Positions 1,025-8,074 of a DNA stretch of 21,991 nucleotides are shown piece by piece. The position numbers and the translations under genes are program-made. The notes under the pieces are model-generated. The model did no database searches, was not told the DNA's origin, and saw only the letters and a list, made by a program, of their open reading frames with translations. Position 1 is the first letter of the stretch; each line of letters begins with the position of its first letter. Source of the DNA: a virus; the UHGV virus genome UHGV-0131363; one strand, written 5' to 3'.

Positions 1025-1550
1025 GATTTACCTTAGAAATGTTTGTTGCAAATTCACATTGAGCGATAACTTTCATATTGTTATAGACATCTTGAGAGTA
1101 TTTCTTAGCTTTAGGGATTCTGTACGAATACCCAGCATTATATGATGCTAAAACTTTTTGTAAAGTCTTCTTTGACTTTGGGTGACCATGTACCTTCGTC
1201 CAAAACTCAAGCTCTTTATGTGTTTCTTTTGCGGCATAGTCAAAATCTTTTAAGAGTTTCTTTTTAGCAACATTAGGACTAATTTTGTTACGCTTTACAA
1301 CAGTCTTCAAGTGATTCTGGAAAATACCGTAATCATGTGTCTTTTTATTCTCTACCTTCAGACCTAACTCTGACTCTTGTAAGGCTATAGCTGCTAGAGT
1401 GATACCCCAACCTTTACCCATGTTATTCTCACCATACTGGTAAGCTTTTAACATGTTCACTTTTTGGCTAATTGATAGCTCTGGGCAGTCAACTGCATAA
1501 GATAAGTGTGCTGTAAACATTAAGCACAAACCTAGAATCAATTTCTTCAT
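1002..1550 (-). CDS. secreted SLT-domain protein (lytic transglycosylase-like) with N-terminal signal peptide
   Basis: N-terminus MKKLILGLCLMFTAHLSYA is a typical Sec signal peptide. Family-1 lytic transglycosylase-like motifs: ALQESELG (catalytic E-S), GIFQN (GLMQ-like), SYNAGYS (AYNAG-like). RBS AGGAG lies 5 nt upstream of the ATG at 1550. Confidence 0.6.
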   Translation of the reverse strand: MKKLILGLCLMFTAHLSYAVDCPELSISQKVNMLKAYQYGENNMGKGWGITLAAIALQESELGLKVENKKTHDYGIFQNHLKTVVKRNKISPNVAKKKLLKDFDYAAKETHKELEFWTKVHGHPKSKKTLQKVLASYNAGYSYRIPKAKKYSQDVYNNMKVIAQCEFATNISKVNHEKIKKV

Positions 1551-1581
1551 TGGTTCTCCTGTTTAGTTTATCGTGACAACA

Positions 1582-1610
1582 ATTATACAGCACTCTGCAC
1601 AAAATACAAA
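1582..1610 (-). promoter_or_regulatory. candidate sigma70-like promoter upstream of the SLT-domain gene (-10 TATAAT)
   Basis: Minus strand carries a perfect TATAAT (plus-strand attata 1582-1587) about 30 nt upstream of the gene start. The -35 (TTTGTA, 17-nt spacer) is poor and overlaps the U-tract of the upstream terminator. Confidence 0.3.
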
Positions 1611-1633
1611 TAAAAAAGGCCGCCGAAGCAGCC
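1601..1633 (-). terminator. rho-independent terminator downstream of rIIB
   Basis: Minus-strand RNA forms GGCUGC-uucg-GCGGCC (6 bp with one G-U pair, UUCG tetraloop) followed by UUUUUUAUUUGUAUUUU. Lies 15 nt after the rIIB stop. Confidence 0.65.
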
Positions 1634-1651
1634 TTTTAAGAGAATTACTTA

Positions 1652-2761
1652 TTAGATTTCACGTTTATGCTGAGAAATAAGTTCGCCAGCAGTACCAACG
1701 ATAACATGTAGAGCTTCAGTCTTGCCATCCCATGCTTTCAGAACATTACGCTGGCTATCAACGATAGCTGCAACTTCATAACGTGATGAACGCATTTTCA
1801 TATCATTGTAATCAGTTGGAACAGATACAACATCTCGTGGGTGGACACGAACTTTCAGGATTGTATCACCTGAGAAGCTACGAACATAATCCCAAGCACC
1901 AACATGAAGACCTTGAGAGCAAGTCACGTTACGGTTATTATCAACCATCCAACGTGGCATCTCTACAATGTTACCCAAATCGTTAGGAACTTTGTAGGTG
2001 TGGGAGTCAACCAGCTTACCTTCACGAGTAGAGACTTTCTTCCAACCAATGATGTAGCCTTCTCCATCAATTTCAACATCAAGGTGAGATACAAATCCCC
2101 AAAGTTGTTCTACAGAATCTTTAGATGGGTTTTCCATCAGTTTTTCGAAGAACATTACAAGTCGTTCAAAACCTTTATCGCCAGTTTTCATCATGTGAAG
2201 AATACGGTCAACCAGAGTAGAACGCATCTCAACAGCACCGTAGAATAGCTTGTCACCTTTGATTGTGATAGCACCCTGAGTGAAGTTTTCGATAGACTTA
2301 CGAATGTTCATCAGTTCAAAGGCTTTCTTGAACTCACCTTTCACAACATGAACTACAATCTCTTGATAGTTCGGATGAGTAGACTCAACAATTTCAGATT
2401 CTGAACCATAAGTCATAATTACAGAATCACCAGTAATCATGTACTCAATCTTGTCATCTTTCTGCATAGCTTCGTGCAGTTTATTTACTGGAGCTTTCTG
2501 TACAGCGTCTTTAACTACCTTTTCAACTGGTTTTCCAGCTTTCTTCTTAAAGGTCTTAGCAACTTGTTTCAAAGTCTTCGTAGCTGGTGTAGAAGTTGCC
2601 TTCTTATTCCCTTTTAAGGTTGCTTCATGACGCTCTACAGCACGACCGACTGAACGGGTTGAAGTATTAAATTTCTGTGCAATAGCTGTTTTAGTCAGCT
2701 TACCTTCTTTAACCAGTTTGTAAATTTCTGCGTCAATCTGTGCTTTAGTTTTAGTAGTCAT
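1652..2761 (-). CDS. rIIB: rIIB protein (T4 rIIB-like)
   Basis: 369 aa, with C-terminal region VHPRDVVSVPTDYNDMKMR and LVDRILHMMKTGDKGFE...ENPSKDSVEQLW resembling T4 rIIB. Lies immediately downstream of rIIA in the same orientation, as in T4. Confidence 0.8.
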   Translation of the reverse strand: MTTKTKAQIDAEIYKLVKEGKLTKTAIAQKFNTSTRSVGRAVERHEATLKGNKKATSTPATKTLKQVAKTFKKKAGKPVEKVVKDAVQKAPVNKLHEAMQKDDKIEYMITGDSVIMTYGSESEIVESTHPNYQEIVVHVVKGEFKKAFELMNIRKSIENFTQGAITIKGDKLFYGAVEMRSTLVDRILHMMKTGDKGFERLVMFFEKLMENPSKDSVEQLWGFVSHLDVEIDGEGYIIGWKKVSTREGKLVDSHTYKVPNDLGNIVEMPRWMVDNNRNVTCSQGLHVGAWDYVRSFSGDTILKVRVHPRDVVSVPTDYNDMKMRSSRYEVAAIVDSQRNVLKAWDGKTEALHVIVGTAGELISQHKREI

Positions 2762-2805
2762 CTTATTACTCTCTCTTGTTAGTTAATAAATCATTTTGTG
2801 ATGCT

Positions 2806-2835
2806 ATTTTAAGGGGCTTTGAAGCCCCTTGTCAA
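2806..2835 (-). promoter_or_regulatory. candidate sigma70-type promoter for rIIB (-35 TTGACA, 18-nt spacer, -10 TAAAAT) with a 7-bp hairpin in the spacer
   Basis: Minus strand reads TTGACA (plus tgtcaa 2830-2835), an 18-nt spacer, then TAAAAT (plus atttta 2806-2811). The spacer contains the inverted repeat aaggggc/gcccctt (2811-2817 and 2824-2830). Sits in the rIIA-rIIB intergenic region about 40 nt upstream of the rIIB ATG. Confidence 0.45.
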
Positions 2836-2840
2836 ACACT

Positions 2841-5207
2841 TTAATCGTAAATTGTAGTCCCTTCTGGAACACATTTTACATCAAAACCTAAGAACTTACT
2901 CACTTCGATGGGTGACACTTTATTCCAATCTAAATGAGAAAGCAAGAAGTTTTCTTGTTTTCTTTTTGAAAGATAGTTTGCCACCTTAATAACCATACGG
3001 TCACCAGCTTTCTTAATTTTCTTGTAAAGCTTTGTATCGTTGTCAAGACAGTCTTTCAAAGTTTTCAATACACTAATGGTATAAGTGTATGCAAATGGTG
3101 CAGCAACGTATTGGATTTTACCGAACATTGCCTCTACAGCCTCTTCATTTCCTTCTAGGAAGATAGTTTTGTTTGTATCCCTTGAATAACAATACCCGCG
3201 AGAAATCTTCCTGTTATTAAACGTAAAGTTTCTGGCAATAATCCAACTGCTTGTAAGGTCAAGGACACCATTCATATAGATACGCGTCATATATCTGTTA
3301 TGGTTAATCCAGTGAACATCAGTTAAGCTGTCGTTCAAGAGTTTCTCATCTACTTCAATCCAATCTTCTGGTATCTTTTTCCAATTTGCTTTTCGGAAAA
3401 CATAGACTGTCTTACCTGTAACATTAGCAACTGACTTAGCTACATCTTCTGGAGATGAGCAAAAACATTCACCATCAACTGTGTCACCAATTGCCTTAAT
3501 GTAAAGCTGAGGTTCTTCAATTGTGTCTAAGTCCTCTGACACCTCTTTGTAGGAGGCTACACCTTCTGCTGGAACAGCTTTCCAGAGTTTTACAACACCT
3601 CTTACAGCTTCTTTACGCTGGTAATGGTGTTCCTTATCAGACATTTTCACAATCTTTAACAAGCTTTTATCAAGTTTGTGCAGATTGATTAAGTCATCTA
3701 ACTCTTTTTCAGTCGAGAATACAAAGACAATACCATTGTATCTGTGAAACAGACTTGACTCACTGGCATAGTCTCGACATGCACCACGCAAGATTTGGTT
3801 GCGTCCTACAGTCTTCTCAGTACCATTTTTATTGCGACGGTCATTTATAACAAACAAAAACTGTTCAATTTGGCTTTTACGCATTGCGCCAAAGATATTG
3901 AACATACTTGCCTCTTGAGTGTAGGAAAGTGCTGTTGCACGAATCTTACTCTCTAAAGAGTTGAACTTGACATAAGCAACTGGGTCATAAAGATAATCTA
4001 CTTTAGGGATGTTGTTTCCGTTCCTATCAACCTTAATATTACCTTTACCGTCACGTTCATAAATGACTGAGCCGTCTTCTGCGTAGATAATTCCACGACG
4101 AATGTTTAGTAATTCTTCTTCCAGAGAATCAAGCTTAACGCCTCCCCACTCTAACTTTGGACACACAGCATTAAACATCTCTCGTGAGTTCAAACGTAAC
4201 TCAGCATAAGCCTGTGCAGCATCCATGAGTGTAGGTTGACTGTTAACTTTCTTGATAACATCCTTTGTAATTGCTTCAGTTATCTTTTTAGTAGCCTCAA
4301 TGATAACATTTTTTGTCGTGTCATTCATCTGCAATGCTTCACGAGAAGCTGCAATAGCGACTGAACCAATAGGCATGTAGATGTTTACAAGGTCTACGCT
4401 CCTACGGAAAAATTCTGGCAATACTTTGAAGAAATCATCACCAAGTAATGCTTCCATGTTAACAGGGTAGGCAATGTTACCCATCACCACATTAAACTCT
4501 GTCCTGTTATCACTAGAACGCCAGCTGTGCTTATGAATCATGGCATCATAAACACCTTCTTCACGGGCAATGACGTTCATATCTGCTAATACATCGTCGT
4601 ACTCAATATTACTTTCTGGTTTTACAGTGAAGTATGAGTACACATTCCCAGCTTCTTCAAAGAACTTTGAGATACGGTGGTCAGCAACTGCCACACGTAC
4701 AGCTAAACCATTAGGTTCTTTTGTTGGGTTAGTTGTCAGCTTAGTTACTTGAGGGATACCATTCTCAAGATAAACAGAGTACTTATTAACAACACCATCA
4801 ACATAGCTAGATACTGTGAATGACTGAGCAATTGCAAATGGTGACTTTGAGCCGATACCCATTGCACCAATGTAGTCATTAGAGTCATTCTTCGTAGAAG
4901 CTCCATAGTTTAGGTACAAACTCATAACTTTATCATGAGTCAATCCAGTTCCAAAATCACGAACTTCGAAGTAAGGCTCAAAACGAGTAGGTAAATGCAC
5001 ATGGAATGGGATGTTCTCTTTTCCAGCCTCTTTCTGAGCATCTACTGCGTTACATGACAGTTCACGAATCACTGCCCTTTCTTTAAAGGTATATACACCA
5101 GAACTCAAAAGGCTGAACATTTCAGGTGTCATTGTAATCTGTGCTTGAGACGTCTCTAAAGAAGTTGAACTCTTAATCACTTCTGCGTGGTCGTTTACCA
5201 TGCGCAT
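2841..5207 (-). CDS. rIIA: rIIA protein (T4 rIIA-like, GHKL-type ATPase fold at N-terminus)
   Basis: 788 aa. N-terminal EMFSLLSSGVYTFKERAVIRELSCNAVDAQ and DFGTGLT...GAMGIGSKSPF match the Bergerat ATPase N-box and G-box pattern of T4 rIIA. RBS GAGGA upstream of the ATG at 5207. Confidence 0.85.
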   Translation of the reverse strand: MRMVNDHAEVIKSSTSLETSQAQITMTPEMFSLLSSGVYTFKERAVIRELSCNAVDAQKEAGKENIPFHVHLPTRFEPYFEVRDFGTGLTHDKVMSLYLNYGASTKNDSNDYIGAMGIGSKSPFAIAQSFTVSSYVDGVVNKYSVYLENGIPQVTKLTTNPTKEPNGLAVRVAVADHRISKFFEEAGNVYSYFTVKPESNIEYDDVLADMNVIAREEGVYDAMIHKHSWRSSDNRTEFNVVMGNIAYPVNMEALLGDDFFKVLPEFFRRSVDLVNIYMPIGSVAIAASREALQMNDTTKNVIIEATKKITEAITKDVIKKVNSQPTLMDAAQAYAELRLNSREMFNAVCPKLEWGGVKLDSLEEELLNIRRGIIYAEDGSVIYERDGKGNIKVDRNGNNIPKVDYLYDPVAYVKFNSLESKIRATALSYTQEASMFNIFGAMRKSQIEQFLFVINDRRNKNGTEKTVGRNQILRGACRDYASESSLFHRYNGIVFVFSTEKELDDLINLHKLDKSLLKIVKMSDKEHHYQRKEAVRGVVKLWKAVPAEGVASYKEVSEDLDTIEEPQLYIKAIGDTVDGECFCSSPEDVAKSVANVTGKTVYVFRKANWKKIPEDWIEVDEKLLNDSLTDVHWINHNRYMTRIYMNGVLDLTSSWIIARNFTFNNRKISRGYCYSRDTNKTIFLEGNEEAVEAMFGKIQYVAAPFAYTYTISVLKTLKDCLDNDTKLYKKIKKAGDRMVIKVANYLSKRKQENFLLSHLDWNKVSPIEVSKFLGFDVKCVPEGTTIYD

Positions 5208-5235
5208 AATACTTTCCTCTTAGTTTACTGTTAAA

Positions 5236-5412
5236 TTACTTGTTAAACATTTTACCAGAACCACCACACATAGGGCAACAACCTGCTCTTGTATAACCTT
5301 CCCCATTACAGTAGTCACATTTTTTGTGCTCTGCATAGTACTTACAAAGAAGGTAAACAAACACTGCTACGCCACCAAGTGACAGTAAAATTTCTATCCA
5401 ATATGCTTGCAT
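5236..5412 (-). CDS. small membrane-anchored zinc-finger protein (two CxxCxGxG DnaJ-type motifs), not in ORF track (58 aa)
   Basis: Manual translation from ATG 5412..5410 to TAA 5238..5236 gives MQAYWIEILLSLGGVAVFVYLLCKYYAEHKKCDYCNGEGYTRAGCCPMCGGSGKMFNK. It has an N-terminal hydrophobic helix followed by CDYCNGEG and CPMCGGSG. RBS GAGGTG 6 nt upstream. Fills the gap between the 111-aa ORF and rIIA. Confidence 0.45.
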   Translation of the reverse strand: MQAYWIEILLSLGGVAVFVYLLCKYYAEHKKCDYCNGEGYTRAGCCPMCGGSGKMFNK

Positions 5413-5729
5413 GACTCACCTCTCATATTCTTGTAAAGGATAAAGCTTCTGTCATGGACGATACTTGTAGATACTGCAAAGTTACTTTCAAGCATCTGTT
5501 TATTTGGATTGTAGAAGCTTTCTTTAAACTCGTCAAGTGCAAATTGGTGATTGTCTGGAAGACCTTTTACACAGACCTTTATTGTGATTGCTGCTGCAAT
5601 CTTACCAGTCAGTTCTTCTTTAGCTGCTACTAAAATTTTGTTAAGGAACTTATGACCATTTTCAGGTTTCTTGATGTTCTCCCAACGTTCCTCTAAGACG
5701 ATGTTGATGTTCATCTCTTTGATTTTCAT
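5394..5729 (-). CDS. hypothetical protein (111 aa)
   Basis: ORF with RBS GGAGAAG upstream of the ATG at 5729, same strand as neighbours. No recognisable motif. Confidence 0.55.
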   Translation of the reverse strand: MKIKEMNINIVLEERWENIKKPENGHKFLNKILVAAKEELTGKIAAAITIKVCVKGLPDNHQFALDEFKESFYNPNKQMLESNFAVSTSIVHDRSFILYKNMRGESCKHIG

Positions 5730-5740
5730 AATCTTCTCCA

Positions 5741-5768
5741 GAAATTAAAAAGGCTCCCGTAGGAGCCT
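5741..5768 (-). terminator. rho-independent terminator downstream of the Nampt-family gene
   Basis: Minus-strand RNA forms AGGCUCC-uacg-GGAGCCU (7-bp stem, plus-strand arms 5751-5757 and 5762-5768) followed by UUUUAAUUUC. Confidence 0.65.
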
Positions 5769-5771
5769 CTT

Positions 5772-5799
5772 ATCATATACTTTTAAAGCTGCTTGTCAA
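5772..5799 (-). promoter_or_regulatory. candidate sigma70-type promoter (-35 TTGACA, 16-nt spacer, -10 TATGAT) overlapping the 3' end of the Nampt-family gene
   Basis: Minus strand reads TTGACA (plus tgtcaa 5794-5799), a 16-nt spacer, then TATGAT (plus atcata 5772-5777). The predicted start site falls inside the terminator hairpin, so transcripts from here would bypass it and read into the 111-aa gene, the small zinc-finger ORF and rIIA. Confidence 0.3.
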
Positions 5800-7564
5800 T
5801 ATTATTTCGAATATCACCAAGAGTTGTGTAGCCGAACTGCTCAGAGTCGCTAAAGACTAGACGTAAAGCACAAGCTGGATGTTCAAGTGCATCTGCAAAG
5901 CTCTGGAACCCATAGCCATCTACAGCTTTCAGATTTTCACCATCCCACATAGGTGCTACACCACCAAAAGCAGACTTCTTAACACCACTATCTGTTTTAG
6001 GGTCTTTTGCAAGCATAATCTCTTTACCACCAATGCTTGCAAGGGTTGCTTTGACAGCAAATGCAAAGGTGTCACGAGTCATGTACTGGTAAGTGTAAGA
6101 ACCTACACCAAACACTACGTTAGAGCTTGCAAAACCCATTTCATACAAACGCTTCAGTATTTCATTTGCACGTTCCAACGTGATAGAGTCGCCATAAATA
6201 AGTCCAATATGCTCATCCAGTACTTTAAAGCCTTTAGAGTTAATAGTTCCCCCAAAGATGTTGTACAGTGTCTTAATAGCTCCATCAATCTCAGCTACAG
6301 GACGTGTTACAACGTTTGCAGAACCAACCATATAAGCATTTTTCAACATCACTGTATCAGCAACTTCAAAGTCTTCTCTGTCAACAACCATCTCGTAGCC
6401 TTCTGACAGTAGCCATCCAGCAATACCATAGTTGATGTTCTCAAGCTTCATGTTCAGAACAGCATTCAACATTGTGTCACTGGCTTCCAGCTTGCTTAGG
6501 TGCTCGTAATAAGCCTTCTTAGCACATTCTAAGTGGATTGCTTTATAACCTGTGACAATATGTACAGGGTCTCCAGAGTCAGGACGAATTACCAGTTTAC
6601 CGTCACGTCCCATAATCTCTTTGCGAAGTGCTGGTAAAATTTCTGACACAGTTCTCCAGAAGTTATAAGTGTCTGAAACAACACTTGCAATACCAGTTGG
6701 GTAAGTTTCTGTTAAGAAACGACGGAAGGTTTGTAACTCACCTTTAAAGCGTCTTTCTTCTTCAATCAACTCATTACCACCTTCCCAAGCAATGTTTGCA
6801 CACATTACAGAGTGCTCAGTGGCTGGTACAGAGCTACCAATATCAGAGATTGGGTAAGACTGCCCATAAATGCGTTTAGCCGTGTATACAGCAGGGAAGC
6901 TATCAGTTCCTTTAAAGCTGGTTAAGTGACCTACAGCATTAAATGCGTCATCAGTAAAGCCTGACATGCCACGCATAGCAAAGTCATGGCACTGATAGGG
7001 CAGATGCAAGTCGTTGTCACAAGTAAGGTCAGCCCACTTCTTACAGATGCGTTTGTAATGCAATGCAATAGTTGCAATGGTACAAGCCTTCCAAATCTCA
7101 GCAGAGAAAGCATCTTCCAGATAACCTGCTACCCAATGGAAACCTGAAACAGTGTTCTGGAAAACAATCATTGGGACACGCATAGGGACAACTGTGCCTT
7201 CTTCTACAGCGTATACTTCAACTGGTAGATAACCTAAGTCGTGAAGTGCTTCCCAATGCTCTCTACCGATAGCATCTTTACCCAGAACACCATTCATGAC
7301 TTCTAAGATTTCGTCAATTGCTTCTTTTTTATCACGTTCAAAGAAAGTGGCATTCCAGTGGTCTATCAAGTAATCTTTAACAAAACGTTGAATACCAAAA
7401 GCTACTACACCATCAATTGCTAAGGGGCTGTTAAACCATTTATCACTGCGTGGTGTCAGGTTCAACATAAGATATTGCGTAGCATCTGGATACTGATATA
7501 TATGTGATGCCTTGTAAGCATCTGCATTAAGACCTGCTGGTACTGCGTAAAGTGACTTACTCAT
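5783..7564 (-). CDS. nadV: nicotinamide phosphoribosyltransferase-family protein (Nampt/NadV-like); candidate Namat (nicotinamide ADP-ribose transferase) of a NARP1 NAD+ reconstitution pathway
   Basis: 593 aa. N-terminal NADAYKASHIYQYP (Nampt DSYK motif), HDFAMRGMSGF...HLTSFKGTDS...SVPATEHS, VVSDTYNFW...LVIRPDSGDP and GLIYGDSIT...VVFGVGSYTYQ follow the Nampt-family motif order. About 100 aa longer than canonical Nampt. Located 1 gene away from a Prs-family gene. Confidence 0.9.
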   Translation of the reverse strand: MSKSLYAVPAGLNADAYKASHIYQYPDATQYLMLNLTPRSDKWFNSPLAIDGVVAFGIQRFVKDYLIDHWNATFFERDKKEAIDEILEVMNGVLGKDAIGREHWEALHDLGYLPVEVYAVEEGTVVPMRVPMIVFQNTVSGFHWVAGYLEDAFSAEIWKACTIATIALHYKRICKKWADLTCDNDLHLPYQCHDFAMRGMSGFTDDAFNAVGHLTSFKGTDSFPAVYTAKRIYGQSYPISDIGSSVPATEHSVMCANIAWEGGNELIEEERRFKGELQTFRRFLTETYPTGIASVVSDTYNFWRTVSEILPALRKEIMGRDGKLVIRPDSGDPVHIVTGYKAIHLECAKKAYYEHLSKLEASDTMLNAVLNMKLENINYGIAGWLLSEGYEMVVDREDFEVADTVMLKNAYMVGSANVVTRPVAEIDGAIKTLYNIFGGTINSKGFKVLDEHIGLIYGDSITLERANEILKRLYEMGFASSNVVFGVGSYTYQYMTRDTFAFAVKATLASIGGKEIMLAKDPKTDSGVKKSAFGGVAPMWDGENLKAVDGYGFQSFADALEHPACALRLVFSDSEQFGYTTLGDIRNNIDKQL

Positions 7565-7570
7565 ATTTTA

Positions 7571-7582
7571 TCTCTCTCTCTC
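7571..7582. repeat. (TC)6 dinucleotide repeat forming the GAGAGA purine-rich RBS of the Nampt-family gene
   Basis: Plus strand tctctctctctc at 7571-7582 gives (GA)6 on the minus strand, 6 nt upstream of the ATG at 7564. Similar GAGAG runs precede other starts (rIIB, 10403, 20148). Confidence 0.7.
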
Positions 7583-8074
7583 TTAGTTATGTCTTGCAAA
7601 CTCACCATGAAGTTCTATTCGCTTTTTAATTACAGCTTCTTTTGCTTCTTCTACCGTTTTAAATCTTCCACAAAAGTATTCTTTATGGTAAAGCATGACT
7701 CTTGCTTTGTAAAGACCTGTTTGTTTACAAAAACTTACACCCTTCACACCAGTTTTATTATTCTTGTATATACCCCTATTCCTCTGATTTTGTGACTTTG
7801 TGCTAAGTCTTAAATTATCCAACTTATTATTAGATTTATCAAGGTCTATGTGGTCTATCTCATATCCACTTGGTATCTCACCTCCAGACATAATCCATGC
7901 AATATTATGTGCATAGTACCTCTTCTTATTTATCTGGACTTGGATATAACCCTTCTTAGACCTTGTGCCAGCCACATTACCAGCAATAGCGGTACTGCAA
8001 AGGGTTACTCTCCAAATTAATAAACCTGTATCTGGTTCATATATTAGGTATCTTTCAAAATAACCCTTATTCAT
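7583..8074 (-). CDS. free-standing HNH homing endonuclease with C-terminal AP2-type DNA-binding domain
   Basis: 163 aa. HNH motif GYEIDHIDLDKSNNKLDNLRLSTKSQNQRN and AP2-like segment GVKGVSFCKQTGLYKARVMLYHKEYFCGRFKTVEEAKEAV. Inserted between the Prs-family and Nampt-family genes. Confidence 0.75.
   Translation of the reverse strand: MNKGYFERYLIYEPDTGLLIWRVTLCSTAIAGNVAGTRSKKGYIQVQINKKRYYAHNIAWIMSGGEIPSGYEIDHIDLDKSNNKLDNLRLSTKSQNQRNRGIYKNNKTGVKGVSFCKQTGLYKARVMLYHKEYFCGRFKTVEEAKEAVIKKRIELHGEFARHN

Follow-up and report, generated by a model that had tools for sequence, protein, structure and literature searches.

A candidate rIIB promoter overlapping a stem-loop at the rIIA-rIIB junction of Felix O1-type phages

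The rIIA-rIIB junction and its overlapping elements

We investigated the junction between the genes rIIA and rIIB in a 21,991-nucleotide (nt) stretch of the virus genome UHGV-0131363 (the window, by which we mean the whole of this stretch). The 79-nt gap between the two genes probably harbors an rIIB-specific sigma-70 promoter that overlaps a stem-loop lying at the 3' end of the rIIA message, so that the same few bases would serve as a two-in-one cassette comparable to the elements described as PeSLs (promoter-early stem-loops) in the T4-like phages RB49 and phi1. The anatomy of this gap and its conservation in related phages carry this reading, and they are presented first, followed by the alternatives and by comparable arrangements elsewhere in these genomes.

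Bases 1500-5400 of the window are 98.6% identical to Enterobacteria phage KhF2, the closest complete genome, which we used for genome-wide counts. The same region matches 275 phage records, nearly all of them Felix O1-type phages (Felixounavirus, Ounavirinae). Every gene in the examined part of the window is carried on the minus strand, and rIIB adjoins rIIA in the same orientation. An earlier note on this DNA had named the two genes an rIIA-rIIB pair, and homology searches place both products in the RII families: the larger protein belongs to PHROG 612 ("RIIA"; E = 4.6e-189, residues 1-770 of 788) and the smaller one to PHROG 609 ("RIIB"; E = 5.3e-89). Comparison with Tequatrovirus-type (T4-type) homologs gave 37% identity for rIIB, with 89% of its length covered, and about 32% identity for rIIA at N-terminal residues ~24-317 (E ~4e-30 in tblastn). 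The window rIIA is 99.9% identical to that of KhF1 (tblastn), and its N terminus gives weak GHKL/HSP90-like signals in NCBIfam; a Pfam search returned no match for rIIA, and a PDB sequence search with the rIIA and rIIB proteins recovered no related solved structure. Public records already annotate both genes.

Read on the minus strand, the gap runs TAA agtgt TTGACA AGGGGCTTCAAAGCCCCT TAAAAT agcatcac..., in which the token between the hexamers is the 18-nt spacer (Table 1). The two hexamers match the sigma-70 consensus at 11 of 12 positions, on the same strand as rIIB, and their spacing lies in the 16-18 nt range of such promoters. The whole spacer is occupied by the stem-loop AAGGGGCT-tcaa-AGCCCCTT, built on a GGGGCT/AGCCCC core at 2828..2813, and its 8-bp stem extends by one base into each hexamer, pairing the final A of the -35 with the initial T of the -10. 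This stem-loop is also the centroid structure of the intergenic RNA, with a free energy of about -12.5 kcal/mol. The hexamers and the 18-nt spacer are present just as the earlier note had described them, and a GC-rich hairpin does fill the spacer, but its stem has 8 bp rather than the 7 given there; the positions of the elements likewise hold, with the addition that all of them lie on the minus strand, which that note did not state. A scan of window positions 1400-6000 against Rfam 15 (E <= 1) returned three sub-threshold, chance-level matches, none of them at the junction.

Neither the promoter-like string nor its combination with the stem is of a kind that shuffled sequences produce readily. 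In KhF2, 9 sites agree with the consensus at 11 or all 12 hexamer positions, where 300 dinucleotide shuffles gave 2.9 +/- 1.8, and the expectation for such a promoter on one strand of a single 79-nt stretch is 0.0013. When the spacer plus one adjoining base of each hexamer was taken as the test region, a stem of 8 pairs was found in none of 871 shuffled-genome promoters of this quality, and one of at least 6 pairs in 4 of them. Among the sites in KhF2 and the window that score 11/12 or better, the rIIA-rIIB site alone has a hairpin in its spacer.

From this layout we infer promoter activity, a start site, and a function of the hairpin in RNA, which might be combined as follows. Host RNA polymerase would bind TTGACA/TAAAAT and initiate at about 2799, downstream of the hairpin. 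The resulting rIIB-only mRNA would consist of a 38-nt leader free of the hairpin and the rIIB coding sequence, and would stop at the terminator at 1637-1614. Since this putative promoter starts transcripts downstream of the hairpin, the expression of rIIB would be separable from that of rIIA, and rIIB could be made independently of rIIA and earlier. A long early transcript would probably enter from a promoter at 5799-5772 and run across ORF111, ORF58 (ORF, open reading frame), and rIIA. The same 20 nt would then fold, on such upstream-started transcripts only, into a stem-loop just past the rIIA stop codon, where its most likely roles are to protect the 3' end after processing or to attenuate weakly.

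Table 1. Features of the rIIA-rIIB junction, its surroundings, and comparable cassettes in KhF2 (window coordinates unless stated otherwise)
Feature	Coordinates	Strand	Basis and remarks
rIIA gene, 788 aa	5207..2841 (stop codon included)	minus	ORF and PHROG 612
rIIB gene, 369 aa	2761..1652 (stop codon included)	minus	ORF and PHROG 609
Intergenic cassette, 79 nt (putative promoter, stem-loop, 5' untranslated region, ribosome-binding site)	2840..2762	minus	sequence and conservation
-35 hexamer TTGACA	2835-2830	minus	sequence
-10 hexamer TAAAAT	2811-2806	minus	sequence; 44 nt ahead of the rIIB ATG
Stem-loop	2830..2811	minus	8 perfect pairs, 4-nt loop (2822..2819)
Predicted rIIB-only transcription start	2797..2801, likeliest A at 2799	minus	inferred from standard sigma-70 geometry; 7 nt past the -10
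Shine-Dalgarno-like GAGAGAG	2769..2775	minus	ahead of the rIIB ATG (2761)
Canonical intrinsic terminator AAAAGGCTGC-ttcg-GCGGCCTTTT, then TTATTTG	1614..1637	minus	annotated in KhF2 and KhF3; t2 of Felix O1
Upstream cassette TTGACA-16-TATGAT, then T-run terminator hairpin	5799..5772 and 5771..5748	minus	BPROM site 30,949 in UAB_Phi87
ORF111	5729..5394	minus	ORF; annotated in KhF2; between upstream cassette and rIIA
ORF58	5412..5236	minus	ORF; annotated in KhF2; between upstream cassette and rIIA
KhF2 cassette copies	22167, 21787, 19316, 18981 and 20465, 19599, 17476, 16552 (KhF2)	minus	

Conservation of the junction in Ounavirinae

We gathered rIIA-rIIB junctions from IMG/VR, metagenomes, and GenBank, of which 43 could be parsed with one pattern. 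Across these, the -35 hexamer reads TTGACA in 41 and TTGACT in 2, and the -10 hexamer reads TAGAAT in 38 and TAAAAT in 5, with A2 and T6 constant throughout. The stem arms are equally stable (5' GGGGCT in 42, 3' AGCCCC in 41) and enclose a TCAA, TTGA, GAAA, or GCAA loop. The spacer stays at 17-18 nt in all 43 junctions despite three different single-base indels, which fall right where the 16-nt hairpin core begins or ends: it is composed of A + core + T (18 nt) in Felixounavirus, core + T (17 nt) in Susp/Moogle-type phages, and G + core (17 nt) in contig L050 (rIIB 66% identical), the one new junction type that the metagenome scan contributed along with several variants. The bases from the rIIA stop to the -35 and from the -10 to the ribosome-binding site vary freely among genera, and the AGAGAGA core of the Shine-Dalgarno-like site is kept in all aligned relatives. 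Felix O1 itself has the junction element, pEC-M719-6WT.1 has a weaker TTGACG-17-TAGGAT with the hairpin intact, and the synteny of rIIA, cassette, and rIIB is retained in every locus examined. Thus, hexamers, spacing, and a hairpin are conserved.

More distant Ounavirinae keep a junction hairpin of different sequence. In phage LPML1 and contig L032 (rIIB ~60% identical), TTGACA-17-TCTAAT is accompanied by the hairpin AAGTGGTC-taataa-GGCCACTT, which includes one G·U pair, overlaps the -10, and is shifted in position relative to the window hairpin. In Yersinia phage P778 (rIIB 49% identical), TTGACA-17-TTAAAT lies within a long hairpin, several pairs of which are G·U, and Erwinia-type loci (53-58% identical) have a GGGCTG-gaaa-CAGCCC hairpin. 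The G·U pairs of L032 and P778 are on the sense strand, and GNRA loops (GAAA, GCAA) are found in the sense orientation only, in Susp/Moogle-type phages, L050, and the Erwinia-type loci. This strand specificity suggests selection on the transcript, and the hairpins of the distant lineages as a group point to an RNA-level role. On these grounds, the earlier proposal that the hairpin could act as an RNA structure on read-through transcripts is the best-supported reading of its function.

The promoter itself has already been predicted by others, with the hairpin passing uncommented: for phage UAB_Phi87, Bardina et al. (2016; Supplementary Table S1) give a BPROM promoter at 27,984, with TTGACA and CCTTAGAAT. 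This position falls between rIIB (start, 27,947) and rIIA (end, 28,027) of UAB_Phi87, and the BPROM site is hence the element described here. Published reverse transcription-PCR (RT-PCR) of Felix O1 further placed the maximum of ORF2 (rIIB) at 10 min and that of ORF1 (rIIA) and the upstream ORFs 128-130 at 25 min, a difference in timing that fits separate promoters. Taken with the near-invariant hexamers and spacing of the 43 junctions, these data argue for the rIIB-specific promoter that had been proposed from the sequence.

Several observations weigh against the combined promoter and stem-loop interpretation. The Felix O1 RT-PCR was an end-point, semi-quantitative assay, and our literature searches for transcriptomes or mapped transcript 5' or 3' ends of Felix O1-type phages found none. 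The spacer is 18 nt long and GC-rich, and the promoter has no extended -10. Long GC-rich spacers and the absence of an extended -10 usually weaken sigma-70 promoters. One stem pair is broken in two genomes (AACCCC) and in one metagenomic contig (GGGGAT). Compensatory stem changes are absent from all 43 alignable junctions, the farther ones being unalignable, so that covariation cannot decide between a structure in RNA and a palindrome conserved as DNA. In the distant lineages, the -10 hexamers of LPML1 and P778 are devoid of the key A2, which makes the promoter call weaker there, and the Erwinia-type hairpin has no recognizable promoter around it; promoter and hairpin are hence not coupled in every lineage.

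The loop of the window hairpin (2819-2822) has a history of its own. It reads TCAA in 16 Felixounavirus junctions and the reverse complement TTGA in another 16, with no intermediates (compared loci, L003-L031, L039-L046, and L056), which implies that the whole palindromic element was inverted between strains. On a tree computed from 1.8 kb of flanking sequence, the loop state needs at least 10 changes, versus 2-9 for 75 common flanking single-nucleotide polymorphisms. The nadV/ORF111 terminator (5768-5750) behaves in the same way, with a TACG or a CGTA loop among relatives. These patterns are what recurrent hairpin-loop inversion by template switching leaves behind, and they show that Felixounavirus does not read the sequence of the loop. 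Inversion of hairpin loops at palindromes and quasi-palindromes by template switching is familiar from chloroplast spacers and from Escherichia coli and T4 mutagenesis. The present case differs in that the inversion takes place inside a promoter spacer; only two central bases change, and no regulatory consequence is thus expected.

Alternative explanations of the hairpin

One alternative is that the rIIA mRNA ends at the hairpin, which would act as an efficient intrinsic terminator and leave rIIB to be expressed only from the embedded promoter; the cassette would then fully insulate the two genes. A GC-rich 8-bp stem placed 10 nt past the rIIA stop codon would suit such a role, as would the different peak times of rIIA and rIIB in Felix O1, and a PeSL stem-loop of RB49/phi1 cut read-through in a reporter about as well as rrnB T1 (PMC2839356). 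The size and energy of the stem are also near those of the true terminators of this phage. However, intrinsic terminators are defined by a U-tract, and the tail of the junction hairpin has none, reading UUAAAAU here, UUAGAAU in most relatives, and AAACAAC or AAAGACU in distant ones. On the discriminant of d'Aubenton-Carafa (1990), approximate in our hands because its formula was combined with modern energies, the junction hairpin scores -23 to -54, negative in every lineage, whereas all five of the window's T-run terminators score positive, from +4 to +38. The TransTerm listing for Felix O1 omits this hairpin, and the KhF2 and KhF3 annotations mark a terminator after rIIB and not at the junction; that post-rIIB terminator has a positive score and ends the unit. 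The junction hairpin is probably not an efficient terminator, and we regard the insulating cassette as unlikely. A terminator acting on the opposite strand was also considered and rejected, as the plus-strand tail is GTCAAACAC and the local genes are all on the minus strand.

The hairpin might instead be functionless, either as the leftover of a mobile or recombining cassette of promoter and stem-loop or as spacer sequence that is merely tolerated. The 11-mer ACAAGGGGCTT that the element has in common with a four-copy intergenic cassette of KhF2 is compatible with such an origin, as is the proposal that PeSLs are recombination substrates (PMC2839356), and the repeated flips of the loop indicate that at least the loop sequence is unconstrained. 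The stem, in contrast, survives three independent indels at its edges as well as a divergence that has randomized the neighboring noncoding bases, and unrelated hairpins occupy the same junction in the distant lineages. A hairpin devoid of function is accordingly quite improbable.

A third possibility is that a dimeric protein of the phage or the host binds the perfect palindrome, AAGGGGCT-N4-AGCCCCTT, as a DNA operator and thereby represses or times the rIIB promoter, with the RNA fold being incidental. Its half-sites are invariant, with no compensatory change in the 43 junctions, it lies between the -35 and -10, where repressors classically bind, and rIIB does have separate timing in Felix O1. 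Against this, the LPML1/L032 hairpin differs in sequence and is shifted in position, making a fixed operator sequence unlikely; the G·U pairs of L032 and P778 are mismatches at the DNA level; and GNRA loops are confined to the sense orientation. Elsewhere in KhF2, moreover, GGGGCT/AGCCCC stems turn up between genes in either of the two orientations and with loops of other lengths, much as ordinary transcript hairpins would. We give the operator very little credence. The same low standing applies to the broader idea that the palindrome is a DNA-level switch instead of, or besides, an RNA hairpin, working as an operator for a dimeric phage regulator or, in a spacer that at 18 bp is over-long, as a cruciform sensitive to supercoiling; were it true, it would give rIIB a delayed-early timing distinct from that of rIIA, and the flip-flop inversion of the loop would reveal extrusion in vivo. 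Finally, an accidental coincidence of a promoter-like string and an inverted repeat has a negligible probability: promoter-like strings of at least 9/12 are indeed not enriched window-wide (62 versus 52.8 expected), but chance is refuted by the shuffles described above and by the strong conservation of the element in related junctions.

PeSL-like cassettes, the likely anti-exclusion role, and neighboring features

The interpretation that we favor, a promoter for rIIB overlapping a stem-loop of the rIIA message, has a described counterpart. In the PeSLs of RB49 and phi1, a strong sigma-70 promoter is combined with a stem-loop in which G-runs and C-runs abound and which most commonly lies between the -35 and -10 or over the -10; in reporter assays, one of the stem-loops acted as a terminator and whole cassettes acted as promoters (Arbiol et al., 2010; PMC2839356). 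The class was later extended to PST/T4 and nt-1/KVP40 (Comeau et al., 2014; PMC4122927). Like them, the junction element packs a near-consensus sigma-70 promoter and a G-run/C-run stem-loop into one short space from stop codon to ribosome-binding site, it is found in a virulent myovirus that uses host RNA polymerase for its early genes, and the RB49 examples that we inspected look alike. In structural terms it corresponds to the definition of a PeSL, namely, an early sigma-70-like promoter with an overlapping stem-loop, followed by a ribosome-binding site and an ATG. It differs in several respects: RB49 and phi1 belong to Straboviridae and this phage to Ounavirinae; PeSLs are near-identical repeats of ~100 bp, whereas the 79-nt gap is single-copy in KhF2 except for the hairpin core and ACAAGGGGCTT; PeSLs adjoin shuffled ORFans, whereas the flanking genes here are the conserved, syntenic rIIA and rIIB; and the stem-loop here has no U-tract. 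Hence, the element is PeSL-like and not a proven PeSL. The architecture that the earlier note had drawn is real, but the layout belongs to an already described class of which that note was not aware; our literature search found no paper that extends the PeSL concept to phages of the Felix O1 type.

Promoters and hairpins are packed together at other sites in these genomes. The upstream cassette at 5799..5748, which probably starts the ORF111-ORF58-rIIA transcript, is kept in 18 of 22 Felixounavirus loci; in the remaining 4 it is absent and the upstream gene or sequence differs. The start site of its putative promoter would fall in the 5' arm of the terminator. Elsewhere in the window, TTGAAA-17-TACTAT (9831-9803, minus strand) abuts a terminator at 9802-9780, and a TTGACA (12235-12230, minus strand) with no good -10 runs into a 16-bp terminator hairpin (12230-12195). 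In four of the eight strict sense-strand terminators of KhF2 (loci L037/L038), the hairpin follows 2-5 nt after the end of the -10 of a promoter scoring 8/12 or better; given a null rate of 0.049 per position, the binomial P is ~3e-4, for a geometry that was chosen post hoc. Transcripts from such promoters would begin inside or beyond the hairpin and would thereby escape it. All told, KhF2 has at least 13 composites of promoter and hairpin in different geometries.

These include two four-copy families of intergenic cassettes at 16-22 kb of KhF2, outside the window, which have a leader in common (cactaaat..cctaaactggaga). The first family reads TTTACA|AGGGGCTTA...TAAAGT...TAAGCCCC and is the one that contains the ACAAGGGGCTT of the rIIA-rIIB element; the second has TTGACA or TTGCAA, a 17-nt spacer, and TAAATT, followed by a GGGAGG/CCTCCC hairpin. 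Both look like PeSL-type cassettes. The Felix O1 genome paper lists them merely as 57-bp and 39-bp direct repeats and describes as unknown how transcription passes the many terminators of that phage, a question to which the packing of promoters and terminators may provide an answer. The more general proposition that the Ounavirinae as a whole run their early genes with PeSL-type cassettes is one that we put forward tentatively, as somewhat short of an even chance, and rank as likelier than a DNA-level switch at the junction. As a separate observation, the GGGGCTTCCAAGCCCC hairpin that precedes nadV in KhF2 (33638-33653) is absent from the window (7560-7600), where the upstream gene is also different, amounting to a difference in gene content right at the site of a hairpin.

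With regard to function, the earlier note had called the pair an anti-exclusion locus. In phiSUSP1 (Suspvirus, Ounavirinae; locus L027), knockdown of rIIA or rIIB by CRISPRi-ART lowers plating on cells with lambda RexAB (PMC11879866); the same paper has no transcript mapping for SUSP1. The phiSUSP1 proteins are 63% (rIIA) and 80% (rIIB) identical to those of the window, and its junction has the same design, TTGACA-GGGGCTgaaaAGCCCCT-TAGAAT, with a spacer of 17 nt as opposed to 18 nt here and a GNRA tetraloop (GAAA). By analogy with this relative, the anti-exclusion assignment is a fair one, and RIIA and RIIB likely serve to counter Rex-type abortive exclusion by prophages.

The comparison with T4 itself is looser. 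T4 has rIIB-proximal promoters inside the end of rIIA, including the middle promoter PrIIB2, which depends on MotA (MotA/AsiA). Gene pair and gene order are alike, and in T4, too, rIIB can be expressed by read-through from rIIA as well as from a nearby promoter of its own. The T4 promoter, however, is MotA/AsiA-dependent and situated in the rIIA coding sequence, with almost no gap between the genes, whereas the junction described here has a plain sigma-70 consensus, a 79-nt gap, and a hairpin in the spacer.

The gene annotations, the promoter prediction, and the class of architecture were all known beforehand, and the locus is in this sense largely ordinary; a modest addition made by the analysis is the apparent use of PeSL-like cassettes throughout the genomes of Felix O1-type phages. 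These phages are widely used for typing, biocontrol, and therapy of Salmonella and E. coli. A conserved host-type promoter for rIIB, together with the routine overlap or abutment of promoters and stem-loops, offers a testable model of how early transcription is arranged, which is relevant to the choice of safe sites for engineered inserts. It further suggests separate dosing of the two halves of the rII anti-Rex module.

Some further observations concern the proteins of the locus. Residues ~1-47 of rIIB (window 2620-2761) form a helix-turn-helix (HTH)-like segment, with a weak Pfam HTH match (E = 0.0013), and TSTRSVGRAVERH in this N terminus is invariant in alignments as far as a homolog with 54% identity. 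A small ORF between rIIA and rIIB of RB49 was tried as a homolog of this segment and set aside, as BLASTP gave no similarity. The rIIB of LPML1 and L032 has an insertion of ~85 aa directly after the HTH-like segment, bringing it to 453 aa (L032, 1489-2850). The LPML1 record (OK283618.1, locus L080, "Listeria phage LPML1") is an Ounavirinae genome with a junction identical to that of the IMG/VR contig L032, and it encodes a full-length rIIA that is 34% identical to the window rIIA; its Listeria host label looks doubtful for this subfamily. ORF58, the 58-aa product encoded upstream of rIIA, combines an N-terminal hydrophobic segment with two DnaJ-type CxxCxGxG zinc-finger motifs (CDYCNGEG and CPMCGGSG).

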